A DNA stretch of 64,000 nt, from IMG/VR virus record IMGVR_UViG_3300014720_002243, positions 20,700 to 84,699 of that record; one strand, 5' to 3'. Positions 1-45,579 of the stretch are shown piece after piece. The DNA is from a virus. Taxonomy: Duplodnaviria; Caudoviricetes. The translations under genes and the position numbers were made by a program. How positions within the stretch are numbered: position 1 is the stretch's first letter; each line of letters starts with the position of its first letter. The notes beneath the pieces are model-generated. The model had not been told where the DNA came from. It was given only the letters and a program-made list of their open reading frames with translations, and ran no database searches.

Positions 1-3000
1 TAAATATTGTTTAGGATCTAAAAATGGTTTTACACTATTAAGAAAGTCAGATCCGGTGATACTGTCAGATAAAGACCAAACAAAATTTTCTATATTATTA
101 GTATCTATGTTTTTAATTGGAAAATCAGAACCAATATTTGTGGCATTTTTAAACCTAGGATTAGTTTTGATTTTAGAAGCATCAAAAGACCTCTTACTCC
201 ACACATAAAGATCTGTTAGCTTACTGAGATCTATTCTATCTCCTTTTACAGATGATAAATTGGCTACTTCGTCTTGATCAAGAATATCTCTATTAAATTT
301 AGCTTTTTCTATTAAACCTTTAGAAATATCACTAAGAGCATTCTGATAAAGAGCATATTGATTGGAATAGATAGTCTCTGGACCAAAACTATCCTTCTCT
401 AAATCTTCGAAGTCCGATCTAATTAGTTGTAAAAATTCTAAATTTTCACTAATACTATCTCTAGATGTTCTATATATTTTAGATGGTGGCAATACTGATA
501 GATTTTTTTGTCCAGATCTTGAGGATCTACTAGCTATATCGACAGTAAAGCCGCCCGCTCCATAAATAGGTAATCCTGGATCCCCTGTTGTTATTTGCAG
601 ATTATTTACATCAAATCCAACTGGCATACCAGATCTATTCAAAGCAGATATTTTTTGATTAACTACTGGATCACTGGTGCCAGGAACCAAGAATAGAGCT
701 TTTTCACCAAAACCTTTGGTATATTCTAACTTATTAAGATCAGCTTTAGCCTTAGTAAATATAGCATTATCTATACCTCCACCAAAATCGATAACGGATT
801 TACCTTCCTTGTACCATATGGGTAATTGACTAGACAAGGCTTCTGTATATTTTTGTTGATTATATATTTGATATGTGTTAAGATCTAAATTCTGAAGAAC
901 GCTATCTATCACTGGTTTTAATCTTAAGGCTTCCGCTGCTTCTCTCTCTTCTAAGAATCTTTCTTTAATAGTTCCTATATTTTTGAATAGGGCTTCTGGT
1001 ATAGCTGGTCCTAACTGAGAAACCTGTACATTGTTTGGTGCGTTATCTGCTAAAACAGTACCATTTAGAGCCATCTTATATCTTGGATAAAAACCAATAC
1101 CAACAGAAGTTGCAGAAACTCCATCATTAATAAAGTTTTCAAATGTTTTATAGTTTTCTGAAGATGTAGCACCTAACGGGAATGCATCAGGACCAACAGC
1201 ATTTAATCCTAATGGTATTATACTAGGATTATTTGTTAATTTCATAAGTCTTACAGTATTTGCGTCTCTCAAAGTTTCTGTTAACTGTCCAGGATCAAAG
1301 TGTCTATTTTTACTAAAATTTTTGTTTCTTTTACCAGCAGCATCTGGTGGATTCTGATAAAAATCACTCGATAAACCAAAATTCTTTGTTTCTGCTTCTG
1401 AACTAGCAGAGGTAAAACCAGTTTCATTTTTCAATAAACTAGATACATAACCGCCAGTAGCATAATATTTTACCTTTCCTCCTCTAGCATAAGTATTAGT
1501 ATTAATCGCATTTAATACTGATCCATATTTTTGTGTTGCTGATTTATTGACAACAAATTCTCCAGGAGTCAACATAGCAGGAACAGTATCTGTTCCTTTT
1601 GGCTGGAATATCGAGCCACCGATATTTCTATAAACCACACCACCACTAGAAAGACCAGCGGCTGGGGTCTGTTTAGATAGTATCTCTTCTATCTTTTGCA
1701 GATGAGATACCTGGGCTTCTTCAAATTTAACCAGAGTATCTGTTATGGCGTTTTTAAATGCTTCTTCTGAACTTTGTTTAAGATTTTGAGCAAAATTTGT
1801 GTTCAATTCAGCGAGCAACTCATTGGCCTTAGACTGAATCTTTATTCCTTCTTTATATTGCTCTACTAATTGGGACATCTCCGAATTATTTTCTGGATTT
1901 CTAAGAGACTTAATAACCTCATTAAACATAGGTGTCATTCCTATGCCAGCCTCTTGTAGCATAGTCTCTAAAACATTAGCCTTAATTGTATTCTGCTCTC
2001 TTGTATCTCCTAAGAAAGGAGCCAGCATATTAAATGCTTCGAGAGTATCTCTTCTATCCTGAGCTATAGCTTGATCAGCAGCCAAAACTGGATTATCGCT
2101 ATCTCTCATTGCCTCAAACACATTTCTTGAAGCGAAAGGATCATTAACCATACCCCTCATATTATTATCTAGTCTCTCAAAAGCAGAAGATAGTTTAAAA
2201 TTATCTTCTCTTGTTGACGTTAAGTATCTTTCTATTATATTTTGTCCAGCTTGAGTTTTTGCTTGAACCTCTGATATCTTTTCTAATGCTGCGGATGCTT
2301 GTTCGCTATTGGCCGCTAGATCTTCTAATGCTTTTTGATTATCTCTTAAGGATCTTGTGGTTCTAGATAATTGATCAGTAAAACCTAATACATCTCTAGC
2401 TCCTGACCTTCCTCTGTCTTGGGCTGATTGTAATTGGTTTTGTTGAAATGCTCTTCTATTTTCTAATCTATTAATATTGTCTAATATACCTTCAGGCGAT
2501 GCTGGTCCCCCTGTCTGGTTACGAATAGTTGTGTCTCTAAAACTTTGTATAGCATTTACATCAATACTGGAACCAAAAGTTCTGCTTAATTGTGAGGCGC
2601 TATTGAATCTAATCTCACTAGCTTTTCTTAGTAAATCGCCGGCTTGTACTAAAAGTTCTACTGAAGTATTGGTCTTATCAACTAGAATACCAACTTTTTG
2701 AGCATAGTCTTCCAAAGCCTTAATGGCAATATCTTGTGCTCCCTTGAGAGCGTCTATAGAATCTTTTAATTGTGGAATAGCTTCTTCTAGATCTCTAAAA
2801 TCTACCTTGTCATCTCCACTCTTTCTTCTTTTTTCTAATTCTATGGCTATTTGTTGACCAAGCTTATCACTTAAATCTTGAGGTAATGACGACTCCGTGA
2901 GTTCTGCTCTAACGCTTTTTCTGATAGCAGCAGCTATTGCCTCATCCGTTGTTGATCCGGGCAACGTTTGTGCTGCTTGTATAGATGCTAACACAGCAGA

Positions 3001-6000
3001 TTCTATTTTTGGTCCAATATTAATTAATTCTCTAATTGTACCACTTTCTGAACCAAAGAAAGAACCGGCAACACTAGCAGCTTGTGCTCTCTCTTCATTC
3101 GTCGAAGCTCTGGGATTTCTGATAATATTAGATGTTTCACTCTTAAAAACACCTATTCTAGCTTGACCTTTAACCGAGGCTTCGGCTAGTTCTACAGAAG
3201 TGTTAAAGTTTTCTAGAGCTACAGAACTTCTATTGATAGCTTCATCCATATTTGCAAACATATTTTTCAAACTTCTGGTATAAGCTTTTGTAGCATTATC
3301 TAGATCTATTAATCCTTTTTGTCTTAGCCATATCTGCTCTTGTTGCCTTAACTGTGCTGATGCTTCTATCTGTAAAGCCTCTTCTATTCTTGCTTTCTTA
3401 ACATCCTCAGTCAGTGTTGCATCAGACTGAATGCCCCTGATAATTGCTTCCACCTCAGCATTTGATCTAGCCAAAACTTGTCTTTGAGCATTCCACTCCG
3501 GCCTTCTCATAATATCTTCGCTAGTTTCGCCGGTTGTAAATCTTTGATTAAAAACTTCTAATATAGAGCTTCTGCTTCTACCAAGCAGCAATGAGCTTTC
3601 CTCGGCTGTTGTTCCAGATGTTCTATCTGCACCGAGCGATTGAGCAATAGCCGCTGCTACTGTTCCACCTATAGCTGCCCCTATAGCTGTTCCTAATCCG
3701 GGAGCAATAAAAGTACCTATTGCGCCACCAGCTATGGCTCCGGCACCCAAAGAAGTGCCTGTTGCCATACCAAAGCGTCTATCTCCAGCACTTCTAGCAT
3801 TAGCTTCATTAATAGCTGCAATGCCAGCTGATGTCGCAAAAGTATTGGCTAGTTCAAGAGTTGCTCTATCTTGAACCTTGGAATATTTTTCTAAAGCTTC
3901 TGCTGACTTGGTTAATGCTCTCTCTTGCTGTTTTTGAGCTTCTTCTATTCTACTTTCTTTAAGAGCATTACTATAATCTATAAATGTCTGTGTAAGGGCT
4001 ACAGCCGCCGCAGTTCCGGCTCCAAAAGCTGTTGCTATTCCTCCAACTGTAGATGATCCAAAAATACCTCTAATCTGCTGATTAAAAAATCTGTTTAAGC
4101 TAACTGTATTTATACTTTGTGCAAATTGACCAAGAATCCTCTGTCCGAATCTAGAATCTGCAAAATTACCAATAGCTCTTATAGCTTGAGCAGCTTGGTA
4201 GAAACTTCCTGTTACGGAACCCACAGAAAAAGCTAATCCACTTAATGTTTTTCCTGCTACTGTCGTAGATCCAGCAAATCTTGATGTTGTTTCTATAGCT
4301 GTAGCTAAAGCTCCACCAAATATATTAGCTCTAGTTGATAATTGCTCAATAGATCTATTAAATACAGACGAAGAGAATCTTTGATATCTTTCTTGTATAT
4401 TGGGGTCGTTTTCTCTAGTATTTCTTCTTATCCTTCTACTAACAGGATTATAATCAATACCAGATGGTAAAGTTGCTGAGTAAGGATTAGGAGCACCAGA
4501 ACCCGACATAAAAGCAAATGTTCTCTGACCACCCGGACCTGTAGGACCAGAAGGTGTTGGAGGAGCCATAAAAGGAAATGTTGTTTGAGTATTTGCATCT
4601 GTTTGGGCTTTGGTGGCATCTGTTTGGGCTTTAGTGGCTTCTATTTGCTCCATAATGCGAGCACCCAAATCTTTAAGATCAGCAGAAGATAATCTTTCTC
4701 CCGTAGTAGCGTTTCTGCCACCAGTAGCCTCCCAAGCTAAATGTCTTTGTACTATCTCTTTTTGAAGCTGTGCATCATTTAAAGGATTAGCTAAACGATA
4801 TCTATCGCTGCTTTCTCTTGGATTTTTTTCCATATGCAATTGTTTACCAATATCCCACGCTGCCCAAGATTCGCTCTTGCCCCATTTACTGATAGCTATA
4901 CCAGCGGCTCTAGCCGCATCCTCCATTTCTTTTCTAAGCTTTTCAATTAGAGCATTTACTTTTATTGGGTCTTCGCCAGCTAATGCTTTAGCGTATAATT
5001 GTCCTCTATCATTAACCCCTCTGGATGGACCAATATCGCTATAATCTAATCTACTATAATAATCTTCTGGTTTAACGACTGGTTTTGGATATATTTCGCT
5101 TCCTACACCTCCTACACTCCTAGCCATAGCTTGCATTACGTCTTTAGCATCAGAGGCTCCTGACTCGAAAACTTTTCTACCGGCTCTTGCTTTTTCAACG
5201 TCTTCATAATATTCTTTACCCGGACCTTTATAACTTGAGCTAGAACGTATAGTGTCTAACTCTATAACGTCTAACTTACGAATTCCGGCTCCTAAAATTT
5301 TTCTAATTCCTTCTACTACTTCTGGTCCTAAATTATCAATATTTTTTTGAGCAAATACTAGTTGTTGTCTAAGTTTTAAATTTATATCGTCAAAAGTATC
5401 ACCTGTATTTAAAGATATAGAAGCGGAGTCTAGGGACTTCTCTATAATATTTTTAATACCTTCTGGCATCTTTTGAAAGACTTCCCATGTAGCTGCTATA
5501 ATCTCGTTTAATTGAGCTTCAGAAGCAACATTGCCACCAACATTAAATCTTTGTATTCCTCCTACAGGACCACCTTTATTATATCCTTGTAATTTGTCTG
5601 CTTGATTTAGTCTGTTAAGCTTACCGTATCCTATACTTTGAGCAGCTTTCTTATTGATAACAAACTCACCCGGGGTTAATAATGCTGGAACAGTATCTTC
5701 TGGTGAGCCTCCATTTGCAAATCTTCTAATCGAACCACCCATGGCAGCTCTCTGAAAGTATTGCAGAGCCATGGCTCTACTATCTTGTTTTCTGTTTGTT
5801 TTTATAACAGCGCTTGGATCATTGATTAAAGAAGGAGATTTGCTATAACCGCTTTGTAATATCCATGCTGGATCATTGGCTGGGGGCCATGTTTCTTCTC
5901 TTCCATATAGTTTAGGATCAATATCTGCTTGATTTCTTGTCCAATCATCTGGTTTTAATGGTGTTTTTTTAACATCTCCTCTATTTTTAAAATAATATTC

Positions 6001-9000
6001 CCATACTCTTTTGGCATCGCCACTAACGCTACTTCTATCTGAAGTTAACATAGCTCCTTTTTCAGTAGCTGCTTCCATTACAACATCATATAATCTTGGC
6101 CCATAACCACTAGTAGCTTTGGATAAACCAACGTAATATAGATAATCTCTCATTTTATATGCATTGACATATCCAGATCTATCATCATTACTCTTAAGAT
6201 ACCCTGCACTAATAGTATTTCCATCTTCAGTGATGCTTATCTTACCATAATTTTTAGAGGGCTTGTCTAAAGTAGCGGTGCCTCCATCAGCAAATTTAGT
6301 GGCTTGTAAGAATTCAGATAACGCTTGTTGTTCTGCTGTAACTCTTTGATTGGCCACAGAAGAATCTGCCACGGCATCTAAAGCGGCAAATTTAGCTCCT
6401 TTAACGCGTTTCTTTTGAGAAGCGAACAGTCTAAGCTTTTCCTCAAAATCTTTATCGCTTAATCCCATAAATTTAGCTATTTTTTTCTGTTCTTCAAATT
6501 CTGATTGTGATAATCCATACTTCTTAGCAAGAGGGTCAACTTTACCTCCCCAGAAATAACCTTGTGGCATGGTACTAGCGAAATTAGCATTTAATCCTGA
6601 TGAATAAAATATATCAGAAAGTAATTTTTGTGCTGCTGTATTTTTTTCTAAAACAATCATGTCTAATAAAGAAGGTATTATCTCATTAGCTCCTAATGTA
6701 GATGATATTTCTTTATCTAAAGATTTTATTGTTTCTGATGATTTATATTTTTCTGGTAATATCGTAGTTAATCCTCTAAAAGAAGAACTACCTGTTTTTG
6801 GATCAGTAAACATTTTTTCAGGCTGATATGTTCCTAATAAACTTTTACTAAGTTTAGATTTAGTATATATTTCTAAGTATCTATCTTTATTAGCTAAAGA
6901 CTGTTGTAGTAGATTGTCAAAGATTTGAGGATGATTTAAAGCTAAAAATCCCTGAATAGTATGGAAAGCTTCATGCGGTAAAAGACTCTCGGCGCCAGGA
7001 CCGAGAGTAATTGAATTTTTGGTTTGACTAAGCTTTTCTATAGCAAATTTTTCTAACTCTGAATATTCTGATTCTGTGAATTTACTTTTATTTTTACGCA
7101 AAGAATTTATCAAAACTGAGTAATTTGTACCTTTGGTATATCCAAAATTAGCATTAGGAATCATAAATTTTAAGGCTTTTAGAAACATAGAATTATTTCT
7201 ATTAATATCAACATTTGTACCGACTAAAAATCCATCATCAGCAATATACTCAGCCGGCATTATACTTTTAATAATGTCTTTATATTTTACTAATAAATCA
7301 TCTACTTTTCCACCTTTAGCAAACTGTTGTACCAGATCCCCTTCCGGTTCTGGTACTCCATAAACTCCTCTAAAGTATCTTTGAAATTCCTCCATAGCCT
7401 TAGCTCTAGATGTAGAGTCAATCGTTCTCTTAGCTTCTGTTGGTATATTGGCATCTATACCAAAAACTTTACCAGCTACTTCTCCTATTCCACTTGGAAA
7501 GTCTATAGCTCGTGTTCTAACAGCATCGTCTAGCACATCTGCTCCTAGAGTAGCTAATAATTGTTCAAAAATACCACCCTCTATATTTCCTTGATTAAGC
7601 ACTTCTCTCTTTTTAAGATCTAGACTTTTTAATGATCCTGGTTCTCCCATCATTCCAGCAGCTGTCTGAACTATACTGCCGGTTTGCTCACTAATATAAT
7701 CAGCTACAGCTTTATACTTAGCTGGTAACACTCTTTCCATAATTGTAGCAGATACCGAGACCGGTTCTCCTGCTGTGTTATTACCCAAGTTCCAAGTCAA
7801 TGGGCCTTGTAAACCATTTTTACCTCTAAGGCCAACAATAGCTAACATTTGTGTTTGGGCTATTTGTTGAGCTGTGCTTTCTAATAATGATTGTTGTGAT
7901 CCACTCTTTTGTTTATTAAATAAATCTATAACATAGTCTCTAGTAGCCGCATATGTGGATACGTCTTCTTCTGTAAGACCAGTAATTTCGCCGGGTCTTC
8001 TCATGAATGTCTTATAGTCGCTAAACCAATAAGGAAGATTAGTTTTTACTTTCTTTCCTAGTTTAAGATGATCATACAACGATCTACCAGCAAATTTACC
8101 AAATCTATCCTCGTTAGGAATAACACTATTCCCTAGAGCTTTTAGAACTTCTTGATTAGAAGCTGGTAATAATCCAGATCCTCTAGAAGCTGTTTCTTTT
8201 TGAACTCTAGCTAATATTGATTCTTGAATTGGAGAAAGTGTCTCAGCGGAACCTATGGACGGGAAAGAATCTCTCATACTTTCCGTAACTTGCCCCATCA
8301 TTATATCTCTATCTATATCCTGGGCTGCTGCGGATACGGATGCTGTCCTATTGGGATCTAAAGCATACATTTCAGGATATTGAGAAGATAAAGCTTGAAT
8401 AACATTGTATGCTCTATATCCAAAAGCTCCGCGAGCCATCATATCTCTTTGAGACCTGATTTGCCTTACCTGCTCCGCCACCTCTGGAGCATTTTCTCTG
8501 AGTTTAGCGCTAACATTCTTGTATGGACCTCCGGGAGCTGACTCCAATAATCTCTGCACTTCCGCATTAGAATTAGCTTTTTCTACTTCTACTACTTCTT
8601 TTATTTTTTCCAAAAGCATAGGAACCATCATACTTCGATTACGAAGCTGTGTTCTATTACCCATTAAGATAGAAGCAATGCTTGGGTCTAGATACTCTTG
8701 AAGTAAAGCATCATCTCCTTTGAATAGTGCATCTCTAACCTTTGTAGCACTAATATCTTCTATACGAGGAATATCTTCTACCTGAATTCCTGCTCTTTGA
8801 TATTTGCCAAGTACTCCTTCTTCTTTACCGGATGTAACAGCCATAGCTCCTTTTAATCTAGCAAAACGTCTTCTACCTCCTGAGCCAGCGACCTCCATAA
8901 ACTTAGGCAAAGATCCGGGAGGCTGATCTTGAGTACTAATCATCGCTCCACCGAAATTTATCTGACTCAATAAAGCCCTAAAATCTGATGGGAAAATACC

Positions 9001-12000
9001 GTATCTTGCTGAATGCTCAATACCTTCTGATCCTTCAGTCATCGGAAGATTAGGAGCAACACTAACAACTATATCTTCTATAGAAGCATCGGGGTTTTGC
9101 TTTATCATTCGAGCTAACAAACTATTTAATGCTCCTCTATGACCTCTTGTTGGAGGAGCAAATCCACCAGTATAAAAACCTCCCGCTTGTACAATCTCTG
9201 GTAATTCACTTTCTCTTTTTCTTCTTAAACCATATGAACCATCTTTTCTTCCAAGAACCATCGCTCTAGAGCCCAATTCTTCTCTTAGAACAGTTTCGTC
9301 CAAGGCAAAATCAGTCGTTGCTCCTCTTGTGGTTCCAGGTTTACGCCCGTATAACCCTTGCCCAGTAGCGTCTCTTCTTTCTTTATTCGCTTCTATTTGT
9401 TGTCTTTCTTGAGCAGAAGACGACGATAGTACATAGGCTCGGTCTACATCTCTAAGGTAAGCATCTAGTTTAGAGTCACTAGCTGTTGATGTTAAAACTA
9501 GCACTTCATCGACGTTGGCTATATCTTGTGGCGTTAGTATTTGAGAACGGGTAGTTTTTCTTAAACTTGCATCGTCTGTTGCTCCCACTCCTGTTGCCAA
9601 ACTGCTTTTACCGCTACCAGCAGCTCCAGCGATGGCTCTTAATCTTAAAAGAGATCCAGATTTTCTCGCAGTCGCTGCTCTTTTGGCTAACTCTATACTA
9701 TACGCACTAGTATCTGTTAATCCTAATTTCTCCATTTCTGCTGAAACAGTATCTCTATTGTTTGGATCTCTTAAAACATCTGTATCTATAATTCCAACTC
9801 TTCTTAATGCTACTTGTTTTAATCCTGCTAATCCTCCTACTGCAAATTTTTGTATTAATCCACCTAGGTTAAATCTAGGCTTTCCTTTTCTCTTTTTTAC
9901 ATCTCTCCCCCACTCCCACATTGGTCCAAAACTATCTCCTTCAATATCTTCAATATTATCTTCGCTTAAATGTTTATCTATATAAGTTTTAGATAATACC
10001 ATTCCATCAATAATTGTGGGTTTACCTTTTTTATCATATCCCATATTAGATCCATGAGCGTCTATCCAATATAAACCTCTTTCTGCTAGCTTACCTTGTA
10101 ATAGTTCAGCGTCTCTCATTCCTTTGTCAGTATCATCTGTTTTAACTTTATCTTGTAAAGCAGCAGTTAATTTTCCAAATTGCTGGACTTTTCTATATCC
10201 AGATACATGTTCCAGCCCTTTTGGTAGTTGATAGTTCCCTATTTCTGCTACTTGTTTCTTTTTAAATCCAATATCTTTAGCTATTTGTTGAATGCCAAAA
10301 CCTGTGCGAGAAATTTTTAGTATTTTGTTACCTATATCGAATGCGACATTTTCTCCTCCTGATCCTATAACCTTAGCCGAACTGACACCGTAAGCTTTTT
10401 CTATTTTATCTAATATACTAGACAATCCTTGTATTTTTAAAATATCCGATAAAGAATAGTAGTCATATCTACCGCCCTTATATCCTTTTAGTGCGGACAT
10501 TAGTAGTCCTTGTGTTGTAGTTTTGCCTCCTTTAGCAAATTTTTGTATTAGTCCACCAAAATTTCTACGATTAACTATTGCTTTATTTTGAGGATATAAT
10601 TCAAGATATTTATCTTTAGACAGTTCAGATTCTTTCTTTCCTCCTTCGTATTGATATCCTAATCCCTTAGACAGTAGGGTATTTTTAAGTTGATCATTAG
10701 CAAAAAATGGACGACCATATTTATCTTTACCTCCACCAGTTCTTCTATATCCTTCTTTAAAGTCTTCTGTTACGTCCTGATTTGATCTGTAAAAATTTTC
10801 TGTTTCTTGTTTAGCTGCTGCTGCAAGATTTCTTCTCCATTTTGGTCCTGAGTTTAATTCGTATGTATCTATACCTAATAGTCTACTGCTACTATTATAT
10901 GATTCAGATTTTGGCGTAAATTGAATATTTAAACTATCTCCGTCCCTGACTATCTGATTAATTACTTTCTGTGGCTCAGGAGCCCTGCCTCCACCAGCAA
11001 ATCTTTTTCTTCTACTAGCTGACCCTGCTCTTATACTTCCACCACCACCATACTTATTCATTCTTTGTAAGTTTCCAGCACCAATAGTTTCAACAGCTTT
11101 CTTTCGTATAACGAATTCACCGGGCTGTAACATTGCTGGCACAGTGTCGCTGTTACCTACTCCGGGAACAACACCCCCTCTAGCAAAAGCTCTTACTACT
11201 CCGCCACTATTTATAGTTTGTGGGCCAGTTCTTCTATTATTAGTAATACTAGAATTAAGCTGCTGTACAGCTGATGTTAATGATTGTAAAGCGTTGGTAT
11301 TTGTTGAAAGAGCCCTAGTATTATTAACCGCTGCTGCTGCATTTTGCTGATTTCTAGCTCCGCTTAAAGCTTGTCCTGCATTTTGACCAACTGATCCTGG
11401 AGATTGTCTAGCAAAGCCACCTAAAAAACCACTCCCAAATTGAAATAATGCTTCAGAACCTTTAACCGCTGCGATAGAGGTTAAAATAGGTAATAATGGT
11501 TTAGCTACAGAAGCAACCTTAATAAAGGTATTTGCTAAGGTTAATCCTACATTAACTAAAGATCTAAAACTATCACTATTACCAACATCTCTAATTAATG
11601 CTACGAAATTTTCTCTAGTTTTTACAAACTGTATGGATAGCGAAGCTTGGGCTTTGGCCGCATCGGTTGCTAATGATCCTTGTCCCGCATAAGCTACTTT
11701 TAAGGCTTCCTGTGAAGTTGCAAACTGTTGAATTAAAGGCAACACCTTACCTATTTGACGAAAACCTCCAAGTTCTTCAACTATAGAACTAAATTTCAAA
11801 TCTCTAGGATCTAAACGCCCTAATCCTTGAGCTAATAATTCAACAGCTCTATATGCTCCTACGAATTTACCTTCTACGTCGATTAATGTAACCCCATACT
11901 CTTTAAGAGCTTCAATGGTATCCGCTCTTTGAATACGCGTAAAAATTGTTCTTAAACCTGTTGCAATAGTTTCTGCGCTTTCACGAGTGGTGGCTCTAAC

Positions 12001-12954
12001 ACTAGTAAAAATAGCTAAAAACTCATTAAGAGCATCTGTACCTTCACTAACACCTTTGCTAGCACTAGCAAACACACCACCGGTACGCTGAATAGCTGTA
12101 ATTAAGTCGCTGGATTCTACGGCAAAAGCAGCGGCTACTGAATTAATAGAGCTTAAGGCTTTTTCCAAGTCTCCTGTAGAAATGCTAAACTGTCTCATTA
12201 AAGCGATAGAGCCTTCTACCGTCTCATTTAAACTGTCGAATGATGGAGCAAGAGCACTTAGAGCTAAAGCCTTAAGAGCTTGTTCTGTTTCTCTAGCACT
12301 TAACCCTGCCTGTGCTAATGTGTCTGCAATCCCTATTAACTCACCAGAAGTAACACCTAGGGAAGTAGATAATCCTGTTATAGTTCTGGTCAATCCTCCT
12401 AATTGTTCGTATGAATCTCCTGTAATCTGAGTTAATCTTACTATTTGTCTATCAAACTCTATAAATTCTGCCGTGGCTTTACTAACGGCATTAACTAAGC
12501 TATAAATGGCTCCTGTTGCAAGGCTAAAGGCGGCAAAACGTCTTACTGCCAAAGCCGATTGTCTTCCGAATTCTTCTAATTCTGTTCTAGCGGCAGCGGT
12601 TTGTTGTGCTGCTCTTTGTATGTTTTGAGTTGTTTGAGCTATATTTCTAGGTAAACCGTTTAATGATCTAGAAGCAGAGTTAGCACTAGTTTGAAAAGCA
12701 TTAAGAGCATTAGCCAATTGACTAATATTGGTTGCTGTTAATCTTGATTGAGTACTAGTTGTTGTTAATACATTATTTAATCTGGTTAATGTAGTCGCTA
12801 GTTTATTTGCATTATTCGATGCTTGTGGATCTATTTTAACTGTAACAGCAGTATCTATGGTACCTAGTTGTCTACGAATGTCAGCTATAACATTCCTTAC
12901 ATTTGATGGTCCTCTTAGATTAATCTCTGCTGTTAGATTAAAACCTTTAGCCAT
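1..12954 (-). CDS. Giant tape measure protein (>4318 aa, 3'-truncated by the window) with internal enzyme cargo domains
   Basis: Starts MAKGFNLTAEINLRGPSNVRNVIADIRRQLG at 12954. No stop was found in the parts translated by hand, and the ORF track lists no terminated ORF in this frame. It has a TP901/PhageMin_Tail-like core (~11600-12500, e.g. FIEFDRQIVRL...SVRATTRESAETIATGLRTIFTRI), a glycine-zipper hydrophobic segment (~3650-3780), and lies downstream of tail tube and chaperone genes. Confidence 0.9.
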   Translation of the reverse strand, partial: MAKGFNLTAEINLRGPSNVRNVIADIRRQLGTIDTAVTVKIDPQASNNANKLATTLTRLNNVLTTTSTQSRLTATNISQLANALNAFQTSANSASRSLNGLPRNIAQTTQNIQRAAQQTAAARTELEEFGRQSALAVRRFAAFSLATGAIYSLVNAVSKATAEFIEFDRQIVRLTQITGDSYEQLGGLTRTITGLSTSLGVTSGELIGIADTLAQAGLSARETEQALKALALSALAPSFDSLNETVEGSIALMRQFSISTGDLEKALSSINSVAAAFAVESSDLITAIQRTGGVFASASKGVSEGTDALNEFLAIFTSVRATTRESAETIATGLRTIFTRIQRADTIEALKEYGVTLIDVEGKFVGAYRAVELLAQGLGRLDPRDLKFSSIVEELGGFRQIGKVLPLIQQFATSQEALKVAYAGQGSLATDAAKAQASLSIQFVKTRENFVALIRDVGNSDSFRSLVNVGLTLANTFIKVASVAKPLLPILTSIAAVKGSEALFQFGSGFLGGFARQSPGSVGQNAGQALSGARNQQNAAAAVNNTRALSTNTNALQSLTSAVQQLNSSITNNRRTGPQTINSGGVVRAFARGGVVPGVGNSDTVPAMLQPGEFVIRKKAVETIGAGNLQRMNKYGGGGSIRAGSASRRKRFAGGGRAPEPQKVINQIVRDGDSLNIQFTPKSESYNSSSRLLGIDTYELNSGPKWRRNLAAAAKQETENFYRSNQDVTEDFKEGYRRTGGGKDKYGRPFFANDQLKNTLLSKGLGYQYEGGKKESELSKDKYLELYPQNKAIVNRRNFGGLIQKFAKGGKTTTQGLLMSALKGYKGGRYDYYSLSDILKIQGLSSILDKIEKAYGVSSAKVIGSGGENVAFDIGNKILKISRTGFGIQQIAKDIGFKKKQVAEIGNYQLPKGLEHVSGYRKVQQFGKLTAALQDKVKTDDTDKGMRDAELLQGKLAERGLYWIDAHGSNMGYDKKGKPTIIDGMVLSKTYIDKHLSEDNIEDIEGDSFGPMWEWGRDVKKRKGKPRFNLGGLIQKFAVGGLAGLKQVALRRVGIIDTDVLRDPNNRDTVSAEMEKLGLTDTSAYSIELAKRAATARKSGSLLRLRAIAGAAGSGKSSLATGVGATDDASLRKTTRSQILTPQDIANVDEVLVLTSTASDSKLDAYLRDVDRAYVLSSSSAQERQQIEANKERRDATGQGLYGRKPGTTRGATTDFALDETVLREELGSRAMVLGRKDGSYGLRRKRESELPEIVQAGGFYTGGFAPPTRGHRGALNSLLARMIKQNPDASIEDIVVSVAPNLPMTEGSEGIEHSARYGIFPSDFRALLSQINFGGAMISTQDQPPGSLPKFMEVAGSGGRRRFARLKGAMAVTSGKEEGVLGKYQRAGIQVEDIPRIEDISATKVRDALFKGDDALLQEYLDPSIASILMGNRTQLRNRSMMVPMLLEKIKEVVEVEKANSNAEVQRLLESAPGGPYKNVSAKLRENAPEVAEQVRQIRSQRDMMARGAFGYRAYNVIQALSSQYPEMYALDPNRTASVSAAAQDIDRDIMMGQVTESMRDSFPSIGSAETLSPIQESILARVQKETASRGSGLLPASNQEVLKALGNSVIPNEDRFGKFAGRSLYDHLKLGKKVKTNLPYWFSDYKTFMRRPGEITGLTEEDVSTYAATRDYVIDLFNKQKSGSQQSLLESTAQQIAQTQMLAIVGLRGKNGLQGPLTWNLGNNTAGEPVSVSATIMERVLPAKYKAVADYISEQTGSIVQTAAGMMGEPGSLKSLDLKKREVLNQGNIEGGIFEQLLATLGADVLDDAVRTRAIDFPSGIGEVAGKVFGIDANIPTEAKRTIDSTSRAKAMEEFQRYFRGVYGVPEPEGDLVQQFAKGGKVDDLLVKYKDIIKSIMPAEYIADDGFLVGTNVDINRNNSMFLKALKFMIPNANFGYTKGTNYSVLINSLRKNKSKFTESEYSELEKFAIEKLSQTKNSITLGPGAESLLPHEAFHTIQGFLALNHPQIFDNLLQQSLANKDRYLEIYTKSKLSKSLLGTYQPEKMFTDPKTGSSSFRGLTTILPEKYKSSETIKSLDKEISSTLGANEIIPSLLDMIVLEKNTAAQKLLSDIFYSSGLNANFASTMPQGYFWGGKVDPLAKKYGLSQSEFEEQKKIAKFMGLSDKDFEEKLRLFASQKKRVKGAKFAALDAVADSSVANQRVTAEQQALSEFLQATKFADGGTATLDKPSKNYGKISITEDGNTISAGYLKSNDDRSGYVNAYKMRDYLYYVGLSKATSGYGPRLYDVVMEAATEKGAMLTSDRSSVSGDAKRVWEYYFKNRGDVKKTPLKPDDWTRNQADIDPKLYGREETWPPANDPAWILQSGYSKSPSLINDPSAVIKTNRKQDSRAMALQYFQRAAMGGSIRRFANGGSPEDTVPALLTPGEFVINKKAAQSIGYGKLNRLNQADKLQGYNKGGPVGGIQRFNVGGNVASEAQLNEIIAATWEVFQKMPEGIKNIIEKSLDSASISLNTGDTFDDINLKLRQQLVFAQKNIDNLGPEVVEGIRKILGAGIRKLDVIELDTIRSSSSYKGPGKEYYEDVEKARAGRKVFESGASDAKDVMQAMARSVGGVGSEIYPKPVVKPEDYYSRLDYSDIGPSRGVNDRGQLYAKALAGEDPIKVNALIEKLRKEMEDAARAAGIAISKWGKSESWAAWDIGKQLHMEKNPRESSDRYRLANPLNDAQLQKEIVQRHLAWEATGGRNATTGERLSSADLKDLGARIMEQIEATKAQTDATKAQTDANTQTTFPFMAPPTPSGPTGPGGQRTFAFMSGSGAPNPYSATLPSGIDYNPVSRRIRRNTRENDPNIQERYQRFSSSVFNRSIEQLSTRANIFGGALATAIETTSRFAGSTTVAGKTLSGLAFSVGSVTGSFYQAAQAIRAIGNFADSRFGQRILGQFAQSINTVSLNRFFNQQIRGIFGSSTVGGIATAFGAGTAAAVALTQTFIDYSNALKESRIEEAQKQQERALTKSAEALEKYSKVQDRATLELANTFATSAGIAAINEANARSAGDRRFGMATGTSLGAGAIAGGAIGTFIAPGLGTAIGAAIGGTVAAAIAQSLGADRTSGTTAEESSLLLGRSRSSILEVFNQRFTTGETSEDIMRRPEWNAQRQVLARSNAEVEAIIRGIQSDATLTEDVKKARIEEALQIEASAQLRQQEQIWLRQKGLIDLDNATKAYTRSLKNMFANMDEAINRSSVALENFNTSVELAEASVKGQARIGVFKSETSNIIRNPRASTNEERAQAASVAGSFFGSESGTIRELINIGPKIESAVLASIQAAQTLPGSTTDEAIAAAIRKSVRAELTESSLPQDLSDKLGQQIAIELEKRRKSGDDKVDFRDLEEAIPQLKDSIDALKGAQDIAIKALEDYAQKVGILVDKTNTSVELLVQAGDLLRKASEIRFNSASQLSRTFGSSIDVNAIQSFRDTTIRNQTGGPASPEGILDNINRLENRRAFQQNQLQSAQDRGRSGARDVLGFTDQLSRTTRSLRDNQKALEDLAANSEQASAALEKISEVQAKTQAGQNIIERYLTSTREDNFKLSSAFERLDNNMRGMVNDPFASRNVFEAMRDSDNPVLAADQAIAQDRRDTLEAFNMLAPFLGDTREQNTIKANVLETMLQEAGIGMTPMFNEVIKSLRNPENNSEMSQLVEQYKEGIKIQSKANELLAELNTNFAQNLKQSSEEAFKNAITDTLVKFEEAQVSHLQKIEEILSKQTPAAGLSSGGVVYRNIGGSIFQPKGTDTVPAMLTPGEFVVNKSATQKYGSVLNAINTNTYARGGKVKYYATGGYVSSLLKNETGFTSASSEAETKNFGLSSDFYQNPPDAAGKRNKNFSKNRHFDPGQLTETLRDANTVRLMKLTNNPSIIPLGLNAVGPDAFPLGATSSENYKTFENFINDGVSATSVGIGFYPRYKMALNGTVLADNAPNNVQVSQLGPAIPEALFKNIGTIKERFLEEREAAEALRLKPVIDSVLQNLDLNTYQIYNQQKYTEALSSQLPIWYKEGKSVIDFGGGIDNAIFTKAKADLNKLEYTKGFGEKALFLVPGTSDPVVNQKISALNRSGMPVGFDVNNLQITTGDPGLPIYGAGGFTVDIASRSSRSGQKNLSVLPPSKIYRTSRDSISENLEFLQLIRSDFEDLEKDSFGPETIYSNQYALYQNALSDISKGLIEKAKFNRDILDQDEVANLSSVKGDRIDLSKLTDLYVWSKRSFDASKIKTNPRFKNATNIGSDFPIKNIDTNNIENFVWSLSDSITGSDFLNSVKPFLDPKQYL

Positions 12955-26620: not shown

Positions 26621-28651
26621 TTATCTATGATAAACACCAAAGAAGTCAGCGTCATTAGCTCCAGAGGTAAACCACTCTGGTCCTTTATACATATCTCCTT
26701 TATTTTCTACCATATCCCTAGTATTTCCTCCCACAATATCATAGCTCATAGGTTGCAAAGATATTCTTGCTTGCCTAGCCATCATGTTAGCTATGAGTAA
26801 AGCGCTATATCGGTCTTTTCTAAGTCTTCCCTTTTTACCATTTTGTAATTTTACTTCCGGAGTATCCCATCTGTCTCTGGCATTAGGACCCGTGCTAGTC
26901 TGAGTCATAACAATTGTGGTCAATTCGTTTTTTAGTTCTTCTATTTCTAAAATACATTCACTTAAATTATCATATATCGGAGTAAGATCAGATTCAAGTA
27001 TATCTTTTCCTTCTTTATCTAGAGCTAAACCTAACGTTAAACTATCAAATCTAGGGAATAGTACTGTTTTATCTTCTAAATCTTTTCTTAATCCATGATT
27101 AGCTTGGGCTGTCCAGTCTGCTTTAGCAAATTGTACCAATTCTAATATGTGTTGTCCCGGTTGATTATCTGTATCTTTTGATTTATCATAATTAATTATT
27201 GGCCAAATTAATTGCTCTCCATCTTCTAGTTTAGACGGATCGTGCAAAGCTTCTTCTATTGCTACTCCTCCTCCCTGAGCATCCAACCCTATTTTTACAC
27301 ACGGAAAAACTTTCATCAGATTACGTATCTTTCTAGTGCAAAACCCATAAAAATCATATTCTTTAACTAGGCCGGTTTTTTGTCTTTCTTTAAAATTGCT
27401 TCTATTAGTTGTCCAACAGTATACTACTCTAGCATGTGTTGGATGAACCTCTAAAACAACAATACTAAAGTTATCTTTCTCTGAGGCCGGGTCTATTCCA
27501 AACACATATTGTGCAGATGAGTTTCCGATTGTCTGTGCGTCAAAAATTATTGGTTTTTCATCAAAAATTATAGGGTTAGCATCATTTACTACACAGCTTT
27601 CTATTAAACTTCTCTTAAAGAAGCCTTGACTATCTGTTACGAAACACGCTGCATATTCCATATTGTATATGCCAGTATGAATTGTAGCTTTAGCTCTTGC
27701 TACTTGTTTATCATCCATGAATCCTTTAGGAATTAATTCATAAGGCATTCTTACTATAGAATAGTCTTTCCAATTAAACGTTTGAGGTACTTCTCCTTTA
27801 AAAATATTTTCTAGTTTTGTAGGATCTCCTTTGCTTTCTATAATAGCTTTATATCTTCTCCAATAGCTAGCAAAATGCTTAAAAGCATAGTCTGCTGTTC
27901 CAGCTATAATAGCTTGATTTCCCATTTTATAATCTAGTGCTTCTAACTGCTCATTCCATATTCCAGCTTCTGCCATTGCTTGTTTTTTAGCTTGTTCTTT
28001 AACATTCTGAATAGGACTGGCACTAACGGCGGCGAATCCAGAAACCACAGTCTCATAAATATCTGGTGATATCGATGCAAATTCGTCTGCTATAATTATA
28101 TGCGCTCTTAAACCTCTGATTTTAGATCCATCACCCATGGGAATAGCTATAACCCAGCTATCTCCTAATCTTAATGTACAACGATCAACGTCTCTTCTTG
28201 GTCCGTCATCATTACCTGAAAATATGCTTCTTAAAACAGGGCTGGTTCTCCAGATGTTTTCCATATATTCGAAAAGAATTTTACTCTGTCTAAATGCAGC
28301 TCCAACTACAACGATTTTTGTGCCCGGCTTAAATACGCAGCGTAATATACAATATAATGACATGATAAAGCTTTTACCAAAACCACGACTAGCTATAAAC
28401 ATAGGGAATGACCTAATCCAAAATTCTTGTAATATTGCGATTTGAATAGGATGCAATTCGATACCGAATAATAATTTACATGTAACACCAAAATATTTAG
28501 GATTGCAAAGCAATCTCATAAGATGCAAGTCGGGATTTTCTATATCCTCTTTGCTTCTATGAATCATTAAGTTTTGAGTAGTAGGTATTAGAGATAAGTC
28601 TCCAAGACCTAACCACGCATCTTCAAATATCTTTTTGTTGATCTTTTGCAT
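26621..28651 (-). CDS. terL: Terminase large subunit
   Basis: Walker A SRGFGKS, IRGLRAHIIIADE Walker B, nuclease GIDPA and KDRYSAL motifs. Confidence 0.9.
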   Translation of the reverse strand: MQKINKKIFEDAWLGLGDLSLIPTTQNLMIHRSKEDIENPDLHLMRLLCNPKYFGVTCKLLFGIELHPIQIAILQEFWIRSFPMFIASRGFGKSFIMSLYCILRCVFKPGTKIVVVGAAFRQSKILFEYMENIWRTSPVLRSIFSGNDDGPRRDVDRCTLRLGDSWVIAIPMGDGSKIRGLRAHIIIADEFASISPDIYETVVSGFAAVSASPIQNVKEQAKKQAMAEAGIWNEQLEALDYKMGNQAIIAGTADYAFKHFASYWRRYKAIIESKGDPTKLENIFKGEVPQTFNWKDYSIVRMPYELIPKGFMDDKQVARAKATIHTGIYNMEYAACFVTDSQGFFKRSLIESCVVNDANPIIFDEKPIIFDAQTIGNSSAQYVFGIDPASEKDNFSIVVLEVHPTHARVVYCWTTNRSNFKERQKTGLVKEYDFYGFCTRKIRNLMKVFPCVKIGLDAQGGGVAIEEALHDPSKLEDGEQLIWPIINYDKSKDTDNQPGQHILELVQFAKADWTAQANHGLRKDLEDKTVLFPRFDSLTLGLALDKEGKDILESDLTPIYDNLSECILEIEELKNELTTIVMTQTSTGPNARDRWDTPEVKLQNGKKGRLRKDRYSALLIANMMARQARISLQPMSYDIVGGNTRDMVENKGDMYKGPEWFTSGANDADFFGVYHR

Positions 28652-29111
28652 GTTTTGTATGTACTCTTTTCATAATCGACATGGCTGTTTTTTCTGCCCA
28701 ACTAGGACAACCGCAAAAGATAACATGTATACCATAATACATTTGTAACTCTACTAAATATTTTAGTATATATGCTGGTTGTATTTTAATATTCTTCCAT
28801 AGTTTTTGAGGAACATCCGAGCCTATGGGGTAATTCATCAATTGATCATAATCACATTCAATCAAGATAAAAGCATACTTATAACCAGACATTCTTTCTA
28901 TTACATCTTTAAATCTTTTTTCCGTAATATTATTAGCAATTTCTGCTATGCCCTTTTTTCGCTCAATGCATAAAAGATGCTCTAATCCTTCTATAGAATA
29001 ATCTCCGGTATCTAGTTTACGATTAGCTATAGAATGGTACGGAAACTCCCAAGGTTGTTGTTCTCTTGTATCTATAATAACGGTAAATTCTGAGTTTTCT
29101 TGATTATTCAT
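28623..29111 (-). CDS. ERCC4/XPF-type nuclease
   Basis: IIDTREQ...LDTGDYSI...IERK signature. Confidence 0.85.
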   Translation of the reverse strand: MNNQENSEFTVIIDTREQQPWEFPYHSIANRKLDTGDYSIEGLEHLLCIERKKGIAEIANNITEKRFKDVIERMSGYKYAFILIECDYDQLMNYPIGSDVPQKLWKNIKIQPAYILKYLVELQMYYGIHVIFCGCPSWAEKTAMSIMKRVHTKHAKDQQKDI

Positions 29112-29388
29112 AATTTTTTTTATTATCTAGTAATCTTAATAACGTTCCAGCATAAATTTCTTCCATACCTTTAATGCTATCGTGATGATATTTACACAGT
29201 GTTATACCGTTATTGATATCAAATCTTAATCCTGGATATTGTGACCAAGATTTAATATGATGAGCATTTAGTTTTTTCTTTTGTAAACATCCAGGCCACT
29301 GGCATTGATGCTTATCTCTCGTATAAACCCGTTTTCTCCATTCTTTATAAATTGGATCTTTGAAATTTCTAAACATGTTCATTCTCAA
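29104..29388 (-). CDS. HNH endonuclease
   Basis: RD..CQ..C...AHHI...NGITLC..HH motif. Confidence 0.85.
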   Translation of the reverse strand: MRMNMFRNFKDPIYKEWRKRVYTRDKHQCQWPGCLQKKKLNAHHIKSWSQYPGLRFDINNGITLCKYHHDSIKGMEEIYAGTLLRLLDNKKNYE

Positions 29389-30361
29389 TATCGAATTTTA
29401 CCATTTCTTCTACTAATTGATCAAATGTATATTCTGGTTTCCATCCTAGTGTTTTTCTGATTTTAGAGCTATCACCATTAAGATAATCTACTTCTGCTGG
29501 TCTATACAGATTAGGATCGACTATAACGTAATCTTTCCAGTTTAAATTAACGATACCAAAAGCTTTCATTAAAAATTCTTCTACAGAATGTACTTCTCCT
29601 GTGGATACTATATAATCATTTGGTTTTTCAGTTTGTAGCATTAAGTACATAGCTTTTACATAGTCCTTAGCGTGACCCCAATCTCTTTTTGCAGATAGGT
29701 TTCCTAGACTTAATTTATCTCTCGTTTTTCCATTGATTACTTGGCCTATATACTTAGTAATTTTTTTAGTTACAAAGCTTTCTCCTCTTCTTGGACTCTC
29801 ATGATTAAAAAGAATACCACAAGAACCATACATATCGTATGACGATCTATAAATTCTAACCAAATTATGTGATGCTAATTTTGCTGCTCCGTACGGACTT
29901 TGCGGAAACATTTGGGTTTCTTCATTTTGGTATTTTATACCTGTGTTATTTATGCTAAAATTATATCCGAACATTTCGCTGGTGCTTGCTTGGTATAATC
30001 GTGTTGCAGGAGAGGAGACTCTGATGCTCTCTAGTATGTTTACAACACCTAGAGTATTAACATTAAGCGTAAGACTAGGCTGACTAAAAGATGTACCCAC
30101 ATGACTCTGTGCTGCTAAGTTATAGAATTCGTCTGGTTGATATTTCTGAATCATACAAGAGCAGGAAACAGGATCCGTTAAGTCAAATTCTTCTAATTTG
30201 AACTCGGGGACATTTAAAATATTAGATATTCTATTAGTATTTAAATTACTTGACCTCCTAACGAGGCCCACGACGGTATAATCATGGTTTAATAAAAATT
30301 CTGCTAGGTAGGAACCATCCTGCCCAGTTACTCCTGTTACTAGTGCAACTTTTTTACTCAT
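29369..30361 (-). CDS. gmd: GDP-mannose 4,6-dehydratase
   Basis: TGVTGQDGSYLAE, NLAAQSHV, QASTSE, SPYGAAK, FNHESPRRG and RDWGHAKDY motifs. Confidence 0.95.
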   Translation of the reverse strand: MSKKVALVTGVTGQDGSYLAEFLLNHDYTVVGLVRRSSNLNTNRISNILNVPEFKLEEFDLTDPVSCSCMIQKYQPDEFYNLAAQSHVGTSFSQPSLTLNVNTLGVVNILESIRVSSPATRLYQASTSEMFGYNFSINNTGIKYQNEETQMFPQSPYGAAKLASHNLVRIYRSSYDMYGSCGILFNHESPRRGESFVTKKITKYIGQVINGKTRDKLSLGNLSAKRDWGHAKDYVKAMYLMLQTEKPNDYIVSTGEVHSVEEFLMKAFGIVNLNWKDYVIVDPNLYRPAEVDYLNGDSSKIRKTLGWKPEYTFDQLVEEMVKFDIENEHV

Positions 30362-32713: not shown

Positions 32714-32752
32714 GTATAATTTGGTATAATAATGTATATAAAGGAGAATTTT

Positions 32753-43488: not shown

Positions 43489-43819
43489 ACTTCCTTTCTA
43501 GGTTGTCGCGGAACCTTCGCTCTAAGTCCTTGTTTACCAAGGGTTTGGGGCGAAGGCCCGCGGTACAACAAGACATAAACCCTTGAGAATCAACAAGATA
43601 GAAAAAATAAAGTTTTGACCGTTGACAAGTCGATAATACTTGTTAGAATACGTTTATGAATACTACAAACTGCTACGCTTACCCTACATACGCTTGGAAA
43701 GTTTTTAGATTTAGCCACACTTTTGTTGGTGTGATTACTGCAAGTTCGCAATATCAGGCTATCATTCTTGCAAAAGAGAAATATGGGGATTTTGTTTGGA
43801 TTGAAAGAGTTAGGTAGTT

Positions 43820-43892
43820 GGCCCCATCGTCTAGTGGCCTAGGACAACGGATTTTCGTTCCGTTTACCGGGGTTCGAATCCCCGTGGGGTCA
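43820..43892 (+). tRNA. tRNA-Glu(TTC)
   Basis: Cloverleaf GGCCCCA/TGGGGTC, anticodon loop TTTTCGT, T-loop TTCGAAT. Confidence 0.9.
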
Positions 43893-43897
43893 TTTGT

Positions 43898-43970
43898 GGT
43901 CCGGTAGCCCAACGGCAGAGGCGATAGACTCAAAATCTATTTGTTGTGGGTTCGAGTCCCACCTGGACTA
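43898..43970 (+). tRNA. tRNA-Leu(CAA) with short variable loop
   Basis: GGTCCGG/CTGGACT, anticodon loop CTCAAAA, 5-nt variable loop. Confidence 0.85.
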
Positions 43971-44075
43971 CCTAAACTGATAGGATCGGCACCGTGGCGA
44001 TAGTCAGTACCATCTGTGGGTCTTGACAAAAAATAAATATCAGATAGAATACAACTAAATAGGAGAGTATTGAAT

Positions 44076-44529
44076 ATGAAACCAGAAGATGTTATAAATG
44101 GTTTGATCGCTGCTGATGATCTTCATTGGTGCGAAGAGGAACAAAAATATATCCTATTGACAATGGATGAGGTCGATGGTATACTGCAAGCCTGTGCTGA
44201 CAACGGTATGACCGAAGAACATATGGAATATGTTATGAATGTTGTCAAGTGGTGTGAACGAGTGCGTGCTGGTCAACTGTTGTGGAAAAACTTTGTGGCT
44301 GGTCATGTATGTGTTGACGGCTTTGATGAAACTGGAGAGCCTTTCTTTGCAAAGTGTCCACCTAATGAGTGATATTACTTTTAGTGAAGTTGAGCATTTG
44401 GCTAATGGAAAGCAACTAGCATTGGTTTGTCATTATCATTATGAACTGAAAAATGGTGATGGTGCGGTAGTTTACTGGTCTTATTTTTTGGAAGATATCG
44501 AAAACTTTTTGAGGACTTATCATGCCTAA
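44076..44529 (+). CDS. Two hypothetical genes (44076..44372, 44365..44529)
   Basis: Overlapping stop/start junctions; AGGAG RBS. Confidence 0.5.
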
Positions 44530-45019: not shown

Positions 45020-45180
45020 ATAAGCGGGTTCGCTCTAAATCCAAGAATATCAAGGGTTTAGGGCAAACCGGCCCGTGGAGGCTGAACGCAAACCCTTGTA
45101 GAGCATCGACTTAGATTTTCTGGATTTTGTCTCTTGACAAGCCGATAATAGTTGATAGAATGCTGGAAAAGGAGATTCAC

Positions 45181-45435
45181 ATGCTTACGCGATATGCTCT
45201 TAGCGATAATGTTGACCGGTGGGTGAGCCATGATGGTGGCACTATCAAGTTTAGTGGCAATACCATGAGCGGCCGTCCGTTTGAAATCGTAACCTATCTT
45301 AATGATGCTAATAGGTGGGCTAACGGCGAATGTATTCAAACCTGTTTTCCTTATCTCTCGTCGGAAGAAAGGGAGATTCTGATTACTGGGCACGATGATG
45401 AATCTTGGGCTTTGCTTTTCGGAGAGGCTGAATAA
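45181..45435 (+). CDS. Hypothetical protein
   Basis: IQ..FPYLS.EERE.LITG motif; AGGAG RBS. Confidence 0.6.
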   Translation: MLTRYALSDNVDRWVSHDGGTIKFSGNTMSGRPFEIVTYLNDANRWANGECIQTCFPYLSSEEREILITGHDDESWALLFGEAE

Positions 45436-45572: not shown

Positions 45573-45579
45573 CAAATAT

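Follow-up and report, generated by a model that had tools for sequence, protein, structure and literature searches.

When a phage infects, its tape measure protein is the first of its proteins to pass into the cell. Here we describe a tape measure protein, from an uncultured tailed phage of aquatic origin, that is enlarged to 6,543 residues and divided over part of its length into exchangeable cassettes; its gene opens a stretch of 64,000 nucleotides (the window) that covers bases 20700-84699 of the 84,699-base viral record IMGVR_UViG_3300014720_002243, whose completeness is estimated at 57%. Lambda gpH (853 amino acids), likewise a tape measure protein, carries at residues 732-792 a module (HFATGG...RGEFVFTKEATSRIGVGNLYRLM..YATGGYVG) that recurs in the giant protein; immediately ahead of this module, a cut in the glycine-rich region yields gpH*, a product of ~78 kDa comprising roughly residues 1-710 (the cut as described in the accessible part of PMC12617516). 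With its one module, one cut and no enzyme domain, gpH differs from the giant protein, which has six modules and at least five short junctions. The mycobacteriophage tape measure proteins treated by Piuri and Hatfull in 2006 are reported to contain embedded cell-wall hydrolase motifs. In T5, an enzyme domain is likewise built into the tape measure protein, pb2, and is separated from the rest of the chain by a mapped cut after R1127 (PMC10038345, available portion), which falls at ...FVPR/AEGG.... The T5 and mycobacteriophage enzymes attack peptidoglycan during entry, whereas those of the giant protein are of nuclease, kinase-like, nucleotidyltransferase and acetyltransferase types.

Comparable designs occur outside tape measure proteins. 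In polymorphic toxins such as CdiA and Rhs, a conserved short motif marks the point at which variable cassettes are swapped, and in Rhs this junction is also autoproteolytic; unlike the giant protein, these toxins have a single variable tip, and neither their motifs nor their delivery route is the same. Polyvalent proteins are giant mosaics of kinases, GNATs, nucleotidyltransferases, nucleases and peptidases that are thought to be delivered with the DNA, and for which autoproteolytic release has been proposed (PMC5512222, in the text available). The giant protein shares with them several unrelated enzyme domains in one chain and mosaic shuffling among relatives, and none of their signature families (MPTase, Kinase-PolyVal, LPD domains) is above the Pfam threshold in it. 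The examples in the accessible text are head-packaged or conjugative, whereas the carrier here is a tape measure protein whose units are set off by a repeated junction module; neither 'tape measure' nor 'tape-measure' occurs in the main text of PMC5512222 (supplements not covered). The Sle1-type effectors of actinobacterial contractile injection systems combine a tape-measure-related scaffold with exchangeable domains and are loaded into a tail-like tube and ejected (PMC13277306, accessible portion). They differ in belonging to a bacterial nanomachine and in having one functional domain per protein, and the likeness is drawn from their description. Enzyme motifs in tape measure proteins, injected polyvalent proteins with the same enzyme types and a modular tape-measure-related effector are already known, and what is new is that the junction motif begins a module of ~60 residues, which the giant protein carries in six copies and which recurs at residues 732-792 of lambda gpH. 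Literature searches, judged by titles and abstracts, turned up no account of this kind of cargo in tape measure proteins, nor of the junction module.

The giant gene lies on the minus strand at window positions 1-12954 (G000:C1:14022-33653 of the full record) and extends ~6.7 kb past the left edge of the window, its frame being open for 19.6 kb without a stop. The window portion of this open reading frame (ORF) encodes residues 1-4318, with residue i at window positions 12954-3i+1 to 12954-3(i-1), such that window 5520-11200 corresponds to residues 585-2478. Residues 1-585 (11200-12954) form a tape-measure core that is found in 52 of 58 relatives and includes the PhageMin_Tail domain PF10145 at residues 191-384 (expectation value, E, 1.1e-21; 78.1 bits vs a cut-off of 33.2); beyond it, no Pfam family reaches its cut-off in the giant protein or its segments. 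Five tape-measure PHROGs match over residues 27-876, four of them with E from 1.9e-17 to 1e-08. PF10145 occurs at one locus in the record, that of the giant ORF. This ORF is preceded on the same strand by the large terminase gene and a run of structural ORFs that could not be recognised, and is followed by ORFs of 2,240, 225, 1,663 and 398 amino acids; no tail tube protein or chaperone gene could be named around it. Based on the PF10145 and PHROG matches, the single locus and the gene order, we therefore accept the protein as a tape measure protein, the identity already assigned to it in an earlier note made from the letters of this DNA.

The earlier note had further described enzyme cassettes separated by aromatic-x-x-GG linkers, and by direct reading all of these linkers are present in the giant ORF in the order given: RFAGGG (residues 652-657), NFGGLIQKFAKGG (798-810), FNLGGLIQKFAVGG (1028-1041), QQFAKGG (1876-1882), YFWGG (2133-2137), KFADGG (2220-2225) and AMGGSIRRFANGG (2404-2416). 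Within residues 585-2478, [FWY]xxGG occurs 13 times, compared with 1.47 +/- 1.18 expected, a count reached in none of 2,000 shuffles, and FAxGG occurs 7 times vs 0.06 in shuffles; over the whole protein, 25 copies of [FWY]xxGG are observed vs 3.27. An aromatic residue occupies position -3 in 25 of the protein's 71 GG sites, against a background aromatic frequency of 0.076. The same position is enriched 4.3-fold for F and 3.8-fold for Y in a set of 130 non-redundant sequences of this protein and its relatives, which together hold 430 FAxGG and 203 YAxGG. The junction consensus, GG-x-[VI]-[QR]-[KR]-[FY]-[ANS]-x-G-G-x-V, is longer than the motif first noticed. One of the 13 motifs, FYTGG (1260-1264), lies within the nucleotidyltransferase active-site motif and marks no boundary.

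A search with residues 650-2420 returned 58 other proteins of 3,005-6,985 amino acids, and with a further 88 loci from viral and metagenome contigs the wider set came to the 130 non-redundant sequences mentioned above. In segment-wise BLAST at a coverage of at least 60%, cassette B was detected in 11 of the 58 relatives, C in 7, D1/D2 in 43, E in 14, F in 7 and G in 32, frequencies that are biased upward because the relatives were chosen by cargo similarity. The cassettes come and go independently among these proteins, and their order is variable (B-c4-D, D-c4, c4-c15-D and c15-c4-D, c4 and c15 being further cassette types), within a common architecture in which the core is followed by shuffled cassettes, by the long helical segment H and by a variable C-terminal part. 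End-points of the relatives' alignments on the giant protein cluster at 12 of the 13 motif positions, with additional breakpoints that lack a motif near residues 690, 1000, 1775 and 1860. When all 59 proteins were compared with one another, 41% of the end-points (19,957/48,264) fell within 12 residues of a motif vs 6.3% expected by coverage, and the fraction was 38% when alignments shorter than 150 or shorter than 300 residues were excluded; at control GG sites that lack the aromatic residue, it was 21.6% vs 13.7% expected.

Cutting the 130 sequences at the motif yielded clusters of tightly limited length, among them B (29 members, 132-202 amino acids), G (33 members, 172-264) and D (53 members, 676-1,307). 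In the 63 proteins that contain both core and H, the cargo stretch measures 307-2,463 amino acids (median 1,630), and a full junction module stands directly after the core in 42, directly before H in 38 and inside the cargo in 3. The exchange of cassettes at the motifs is thus well supported, and the proposal that cargo swaps would map to the linkers has held. Cassette types foreign to this phage were also observed, such as one of 431 amino acids in 34 proteins and one of 406 in 20 (for example L008:12557-13903 and L012:10112-11320). In Pfam, 18 of 19 representatives of these types had no match at E<=0.01 and one had a sub-threshold match, and the foreign types constitute a pool of unassigned cargo domains. 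The cargo region itself gave no match by tblastn against 50,697 phage records, nor by phmmer against PDB sequences.

The long linkers at both ends of the cargo proved to be copies of a module of ~60 residues with the consensus GG-x-[IV]-R-x-FA-x-GG-x-VPG-x-G-x-x-DTVPAMLTPGEFV-[IV]-x-KK-A-x-x-x-IG-x-x-x-L-x-x-x-N ... [FY]-x-x-GG, and the short junctions between cassettes correspond to its first 11 residues, GG-x-[IV]-[QR]-[KR]-[FY]-[ANS]-x-GG. The giant protein has six copies of the module, L1-L6, and at least five short junctions. L1 (residues 586-656; 10987-11199, minus strand; GGVVRAFARGG..DTVPAMLQPGEFVIRKKAVETIGAGNLQRMN..RFAGGG) precedes the cargo, L2 (2417-2476; 5527-5706; ..EDTVPALLTPGEFVINKKAAQSIGYGKLNRLN..YNKGG..RFNVGG) follows it, L3 occupies residues 3771-3836 (1447-1644), and L4-L6 lie beyond the window, in the remainder of the ORF in the full record. 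A profile built from 32 copies retrieved 25,919 representatives at E<=1e-3 from 1.84 billion proteins, the best 150 of which measure 2,122-7,872 amino acids and hold 4-11 copies each. Against PDB sequences, the profile matched tape measure proteins, namely Douge gp16 (E 1.8e-8, two copies), lambda gpH at residues 732-792 (E 3.2e-6) and, weakly, JBD30 (E 0.3), and hhalign gave a probability of 96.7% (E 3.5e-10) for the module and gpH, establishing homology between the two. Among cultured phages, tblastn with L1 located its core in the tape measure proteins of Clavibacter phage CN1A, where the module stands near the C-terminus, Gordonia GMA4 and Nitrincola 1M3-16, as well as cyanomyovirus virion proteins encoded beside the baseplate hub. 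In the T4-like cyanophage Synechococcus phage S-SCSM1 (L095, locus 1174-4026), the module core is located in a 950-residue virion protein annotated 'endolysin', whose gene is flanked by the baseplate hub genes on one side and the tape measure gene on the other, and S-SM2, P-TIM68 and Bellamy gave similar matches to the module core. The range of the module thus extends beyond siphovirus tape measure proteins.

We next consider what the cassettes encode, all of them on the minus strand. Cassette B (residues 657-810; 10525-10986), which ends in GGLIQKFAKGG, is an SNase-like nuclease, in agreement with the thermonuclease proposed for it. Its profile, built from 10 sequences, matches 31 PDB sequences, all of them thermonucleases (best E 0.0065); D671, G672, D673, R691, D696, E699 and R748 are invariant in the 10 sequences, and in the HMMER alignment the catalytic and calcium-binding set (the Asp pair of DGD, Arg, Asp..Glu and Arg) aligns with that of thermonuclease. 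The cassette also matches the endonuclease family phrog_452 (E 6.2e-5), the sole match when seven segments were compared with PHROGs, while a Pfam search with nine separate segments returned a sub-threshold SNase match and otherwise faint ones.

Cassette C (residues 811-1041; 9832-10524), ending in GGLIQKFAVGG, resembles a small kinase domain in its motifs GSGGEN..LKIS, DAxxxN and IDG, and the Gly-rich loop, LK, D-x4-N and IDG are invariant in 8 sequences. Its named neighbours in a language-model atlas are all kinase families (T7 kinase, Kinase-PolyVal, Pkinase, YrbL and OspG); because the scores reach only 0.86-0.89 (0.86 for Kinase-PolyVal, PF18762), we treat these matches as leads. Pfam, PHROGs and PDB sequences, the latter searched with a profile as well, contained no match. 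The protein kinase suggested for this cassette thus keeps its invariant motifs and an atlas lead, and lacks a sequence match in these three collections.

Cassette D (residues 1042-1882; 7309-9831), which ends in QQFAKGG, combines a Walker-A P-loop (GSGKS, residues ~1112-1117) with the signature motifs of a HIGH nucleotidyltransferase, TRGH (1269-1272) and ISATKVR (1401-1407), as had been read from the sequence; a middle part of the cassette is without assignment. The T and H of TRGH and the I, S, T and R of ISATKVR are invariant in 15 sequences, PF16581 is matched by 10 of the 15 members and PF01467 by 2, and the PDB matches (MJ0951, E 2.1e-4; NMNAT; PPAT) fall exactly at these motifs. The C-terminal ~100 residues move separately in many relatives. 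The unit formed there (~1775-1877) shows an E..D..ExK-like pattern by eye in the alignment consensus, and neither the atlas (residues 1501-1884) nor Pfam nor PHROGs returned a usable match for it; the suggested PD-(D/E)xK-like fold is not supported. The D-type cassette of one relative matches an ADP-ribosyltransferase (PF03496, E 1.8e-4), a further type of cargo enzyme.

For cassettes E+F and for cassette G, AlphaFold models were compared with known structures. Cassette E (residues 1883-2137; 6544-7308), ending in YFWGG, contains an HExxH motif (H1994, E1995, H1998) that, together with a downstream Glu, is invariant in 7 sequences and had been read as a peptidase. The E+F model is entirely helical (predicted local distance difference test, pLDDT, 71.3) and no peptidase or zincin is among its matches: for cassette E, Foldseek gave a best E of 0.47 in the PDB (di-iron proteins) and 0.23 in BFVD, and the best match in VIA, with a Z of 6.8 over 56 residues, was again no zincin. 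A peptidase is therefore not supported. Stand-alone homologues of cassette E were absent among proteins of 143-457 amino acids, in a search that depended on shared words. Cassette F (residues 2138-2225; 6280-6543), ending in KFADGG, is seen only together with cassette E (7 of 58 relatives) and is the short helical unit that it had been taken for.

Cassette G (residues 2226-2416; 5707-6279), ending in GGSIRRFANGG, had been called a GNAT, and its model has a core of the order strand-strand-strand-strand-helix-strand-helix-strand. The first 12 Foldseek matches are without exception GNAT-fold acetyltransferases (best E 6.5e-4, probability 0.69-1.00), with the anti-CRISPR acetyltransferase AcrVA5 lower in the list. 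Because one match only has E<=0.001 and the mean pLDDT is 64.8, we regard support for a GNAT fold as moderate. A profile of cassette G against PDB sequences gave nothing meaningful. Among relatives the cassette keeps 48-88% identity, whereas divergence elsewhere in these proteins is far greater, and a search for stand-alone homologues, which again depended on shared words, returned two matches, both on contigs of ~1 kb and hence likely fragments. Taken together, the enzyme list of the earlier note stands for the nuclease, the nucleotidyltransferase with its P-loop and the GNAT, is reduced to a lead for the kinase, and lacks support for the peptidase and the PD-(D/E)xK unit.

These results suggest a general model for the giant protein, namely that it is a mosaic tape measure protein that carries cargo and delivers its cassettes when ejected, to which we assign a probability of roughly 0.55-0.6. 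In this model, the chain would lie extended in the tail lumen, as other tape measure proteins do, and would be expelled into the cell envelope ahead of the DNA. The cassettes would thus arrive first in the host and, once folded there, would target its nucleic acids, proteins or nucleotide pools. Independence of the units would come from the glycine-rich junctions, which, by parallel with lambda gpH, may also be the points at which the chain is cut into separate products. If the whole length serves as a ruler, 6,543 residues would correspond to a tail of ~1 micrometre, raising the question of how cargo is stored in a narrow tube. A tail lumen of ~4 nm has no room for three or six copies of folded 20-90 kDa domains, and the model assumes that the cargo is stored unfolded.

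This size constraint is one of several points that weigh against delivery, release or the underlying assignments. The SNase family PF00565 scores 17.1 bits on cassette B, below its cut-off of 21, and is matched at E<=0.01 by 2 of 10 members; the cassette G model is of low confidence and the cassette frequencies are inflated, as noted above; and the end-points of the all-against-all comparison are non-independent, the fraction within 15 residues of a motif being 19% (1,352/6,963) when unique 10-residue bins are counted. The module region lies outside the resolved parts of the lambda and Douge structures (for lambda, PMC12617516, accessible part). As for proteolysis, 44 of 58 relatives lack cassette E, the only candidate for a protease within the chain itself, and none of the four families Peptidase_S78, ClpP, C48 and C39 was found in the record, itself ~57% complete. 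T5 pb2 offers no parallel in sequence, since its C-terminal region, around the cut, shows no detectable homology to the module profile (hhalign probability 0.06%). Finally, the gpH cut at ~710 is an estimate that lies ~20 residues before FATGG, and the parallel with the junctions is one of position only.

The gpH sequence nevertheless bears directly on cleavage. It reads ...GGAVGGGASASGGTAIQAAAAKFHFATGG(737)..., where a cut after FATGG-737 would give products of 80.1 and 12.2 kDa, and the size of gpH* together with this sequence places the known cut at, or within ~20-40 residues upstream of, the leading edge of the module. The homology of the module to gpH 732-792, near this cut, makes cleavage at the motifs plausible, though unproven, and by this analogy we consider cutting at some junctions possible, at somewhat under even odds. 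A different account, which we find credible but rather unlikely, holds that the junctions are flexible hinges and conserved recombination splice points, comparable to the motifs ahead of the variable tips of polymorphic toxins, with the chain ejected and working uncut or being cut once near its C-terminus as in lambda. It would explain why cassette content and order are shuffled exactly at the motifs and why two junctions of the giant gene are alike in DNA (~27/33 bases), and it fits the predicted disorder of the junctions (pLDDT <50 in both AlphaFold models), the missing proteases, and the single module near the C-terminus of ordinary tape measure proteins such as those of Clavibacter phage CN1A and lambda. 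Some injected polyvalent proteins do stay uncut, the N4 virion RNA polymerase and the plasmid proteins ArdC and TraC1 being examples (PMC5512222, in the text available), a precedent that also counts against release by cleavage. However, the junctions are conserved at the protein level over 11-60 residues among relatives whose cassettes are only 25-60% identical, which exceeds what a recombination scar needs, and the homologous region of gpH adjoins a real processing site. Hinge and cleavage roles are, moreover, mutually compatible.

The broad occurrence of the module invites another interpretation, in which it is a structural element that sets chain register or binds the tail tube or hub, and the cassettes are passengers with little or no catalysis after ejection, such as length spacers or parts acting in assembly or at the envelope. 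The 25,919 representatives, which include ordinary tape measure proteins and the cyanomyovirus virion proteins encoded beside the baseplate hub, the family lengths of ~2,000-7,900 amino acids, as expected of tolerated spacers, and the scarcity of recognised families among the other cassette types (18 of 19 representatives having no Pfam match) are in line with it. Yet catalytic residues do not vary among relatives in the SNase, nucleotidyltransferase and kinase-like cassettes, cassette G is conserved beyond its surroundings, and enzymes of these types act on cytoplasmic substrates, and we consider this interpretation improbable. That the giant ORF arose as an artefact of assembly or gene calling that fused several genes might be suspected of an incomplete metagenomic contig, but it is very hard to reconcile with a frame that stays open for its entire length, with 58 relatives of similar scale from independent sources, and with 80 further metagenome loci in which long open frames come after the same core. 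Fifteen loci contain the end of the ORF, and in none of these does a downstream ORF carry a junction module, so that no sign of split versions was seen; we accordingly give an artefact almost no weight.

Delivery of cassettes by the giant protein, if correct, may be one instance of something wider. A large class of tape measure proteins (2,000-7,900 amino acids, 4-11 modules) could be polyproteins in which [FY]-A-x-G-G serves as a general processing site, that of gpH -> gpH* included, and from which, in aquatic phages such as this one, enzymes that act in the cytoplasm (nuclease, kinase, NMNAT-like nucleotidyltransferase, acetyltransferase and, in one relative, ADP-ribosyltransferase) would be released to disarm host defences before the genome enters. 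We put this joint proposal forward tentatively and think it unlikely to hold in all its parts, which include the claim that such a class is previously undescribed. If tape measure proteins carry exchangeable enzymes, they would provide an early route of counter-defence that works before phage gene expression. The catalogue of cassettes, many of which belong to no known family, is also a resource for finding effector activities that are new. The connection with lambda gpH supplies a testable candidate for the forty-year-old question of where and how gpH is cut.

Beyond the cargo, segment H (residues 2477-3770; 1645-5526, minus strand) was delimited by segment comparison as a long helical, low-complexity scaffold, the last part of which is common to 41 of 58 relatives. 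At residues 3073-3104 (window 3642-3737) it contains a Gly/Ala-rich hydrophobic stretch, AIAGGAIGTFIAPGLGTAIGAAIGGTVAAAIA, which is reminiscent of the hydrophobic glycine-rich region located ahead of the module in lambda gpH and may be a membrane-inserting part.

Elsewhere in the window, directly upstream of the large terminase gene, positions 28623-30361 (minus strand) match an ERCC4-type nuclease (phrog_3490, E 5.7e-19) and, beside it, a nucleotide-sugar epimerase (phrog_540, E 9e-75). Near position 32000, the GC skew changes sign and gene orientation flips from the minus-strand late genes to plus-strand genes, marking a divergent transcription boundary. On the plus side of it, at 32732-34579, a protein of 615 amino acids matches phrog_13807 end to end (E 1.4e-206) and has weaker glutamine-amidotransferase-like matches. 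Twelve tRNA genes (Glu, Leu, Arg, Met, Thr, Gln, Asn, Trp, Ser, Tyr, Lys and Gly) lie on the plus strand at 43819-57814, partly in a tight array at 51271-52253. Between 35000 and 58000, the G+C content is 0.42-0.44, compared with ~0.33 in the structural block, and long ORFs are few under translation table 11. Stop-codon reassignment was considered for the short ORFs of this region and rejected: reading any one stop codon as sense lengthens the frames about equally, and there is therefore no sign of recoding. The region probably consists of many small early genes.

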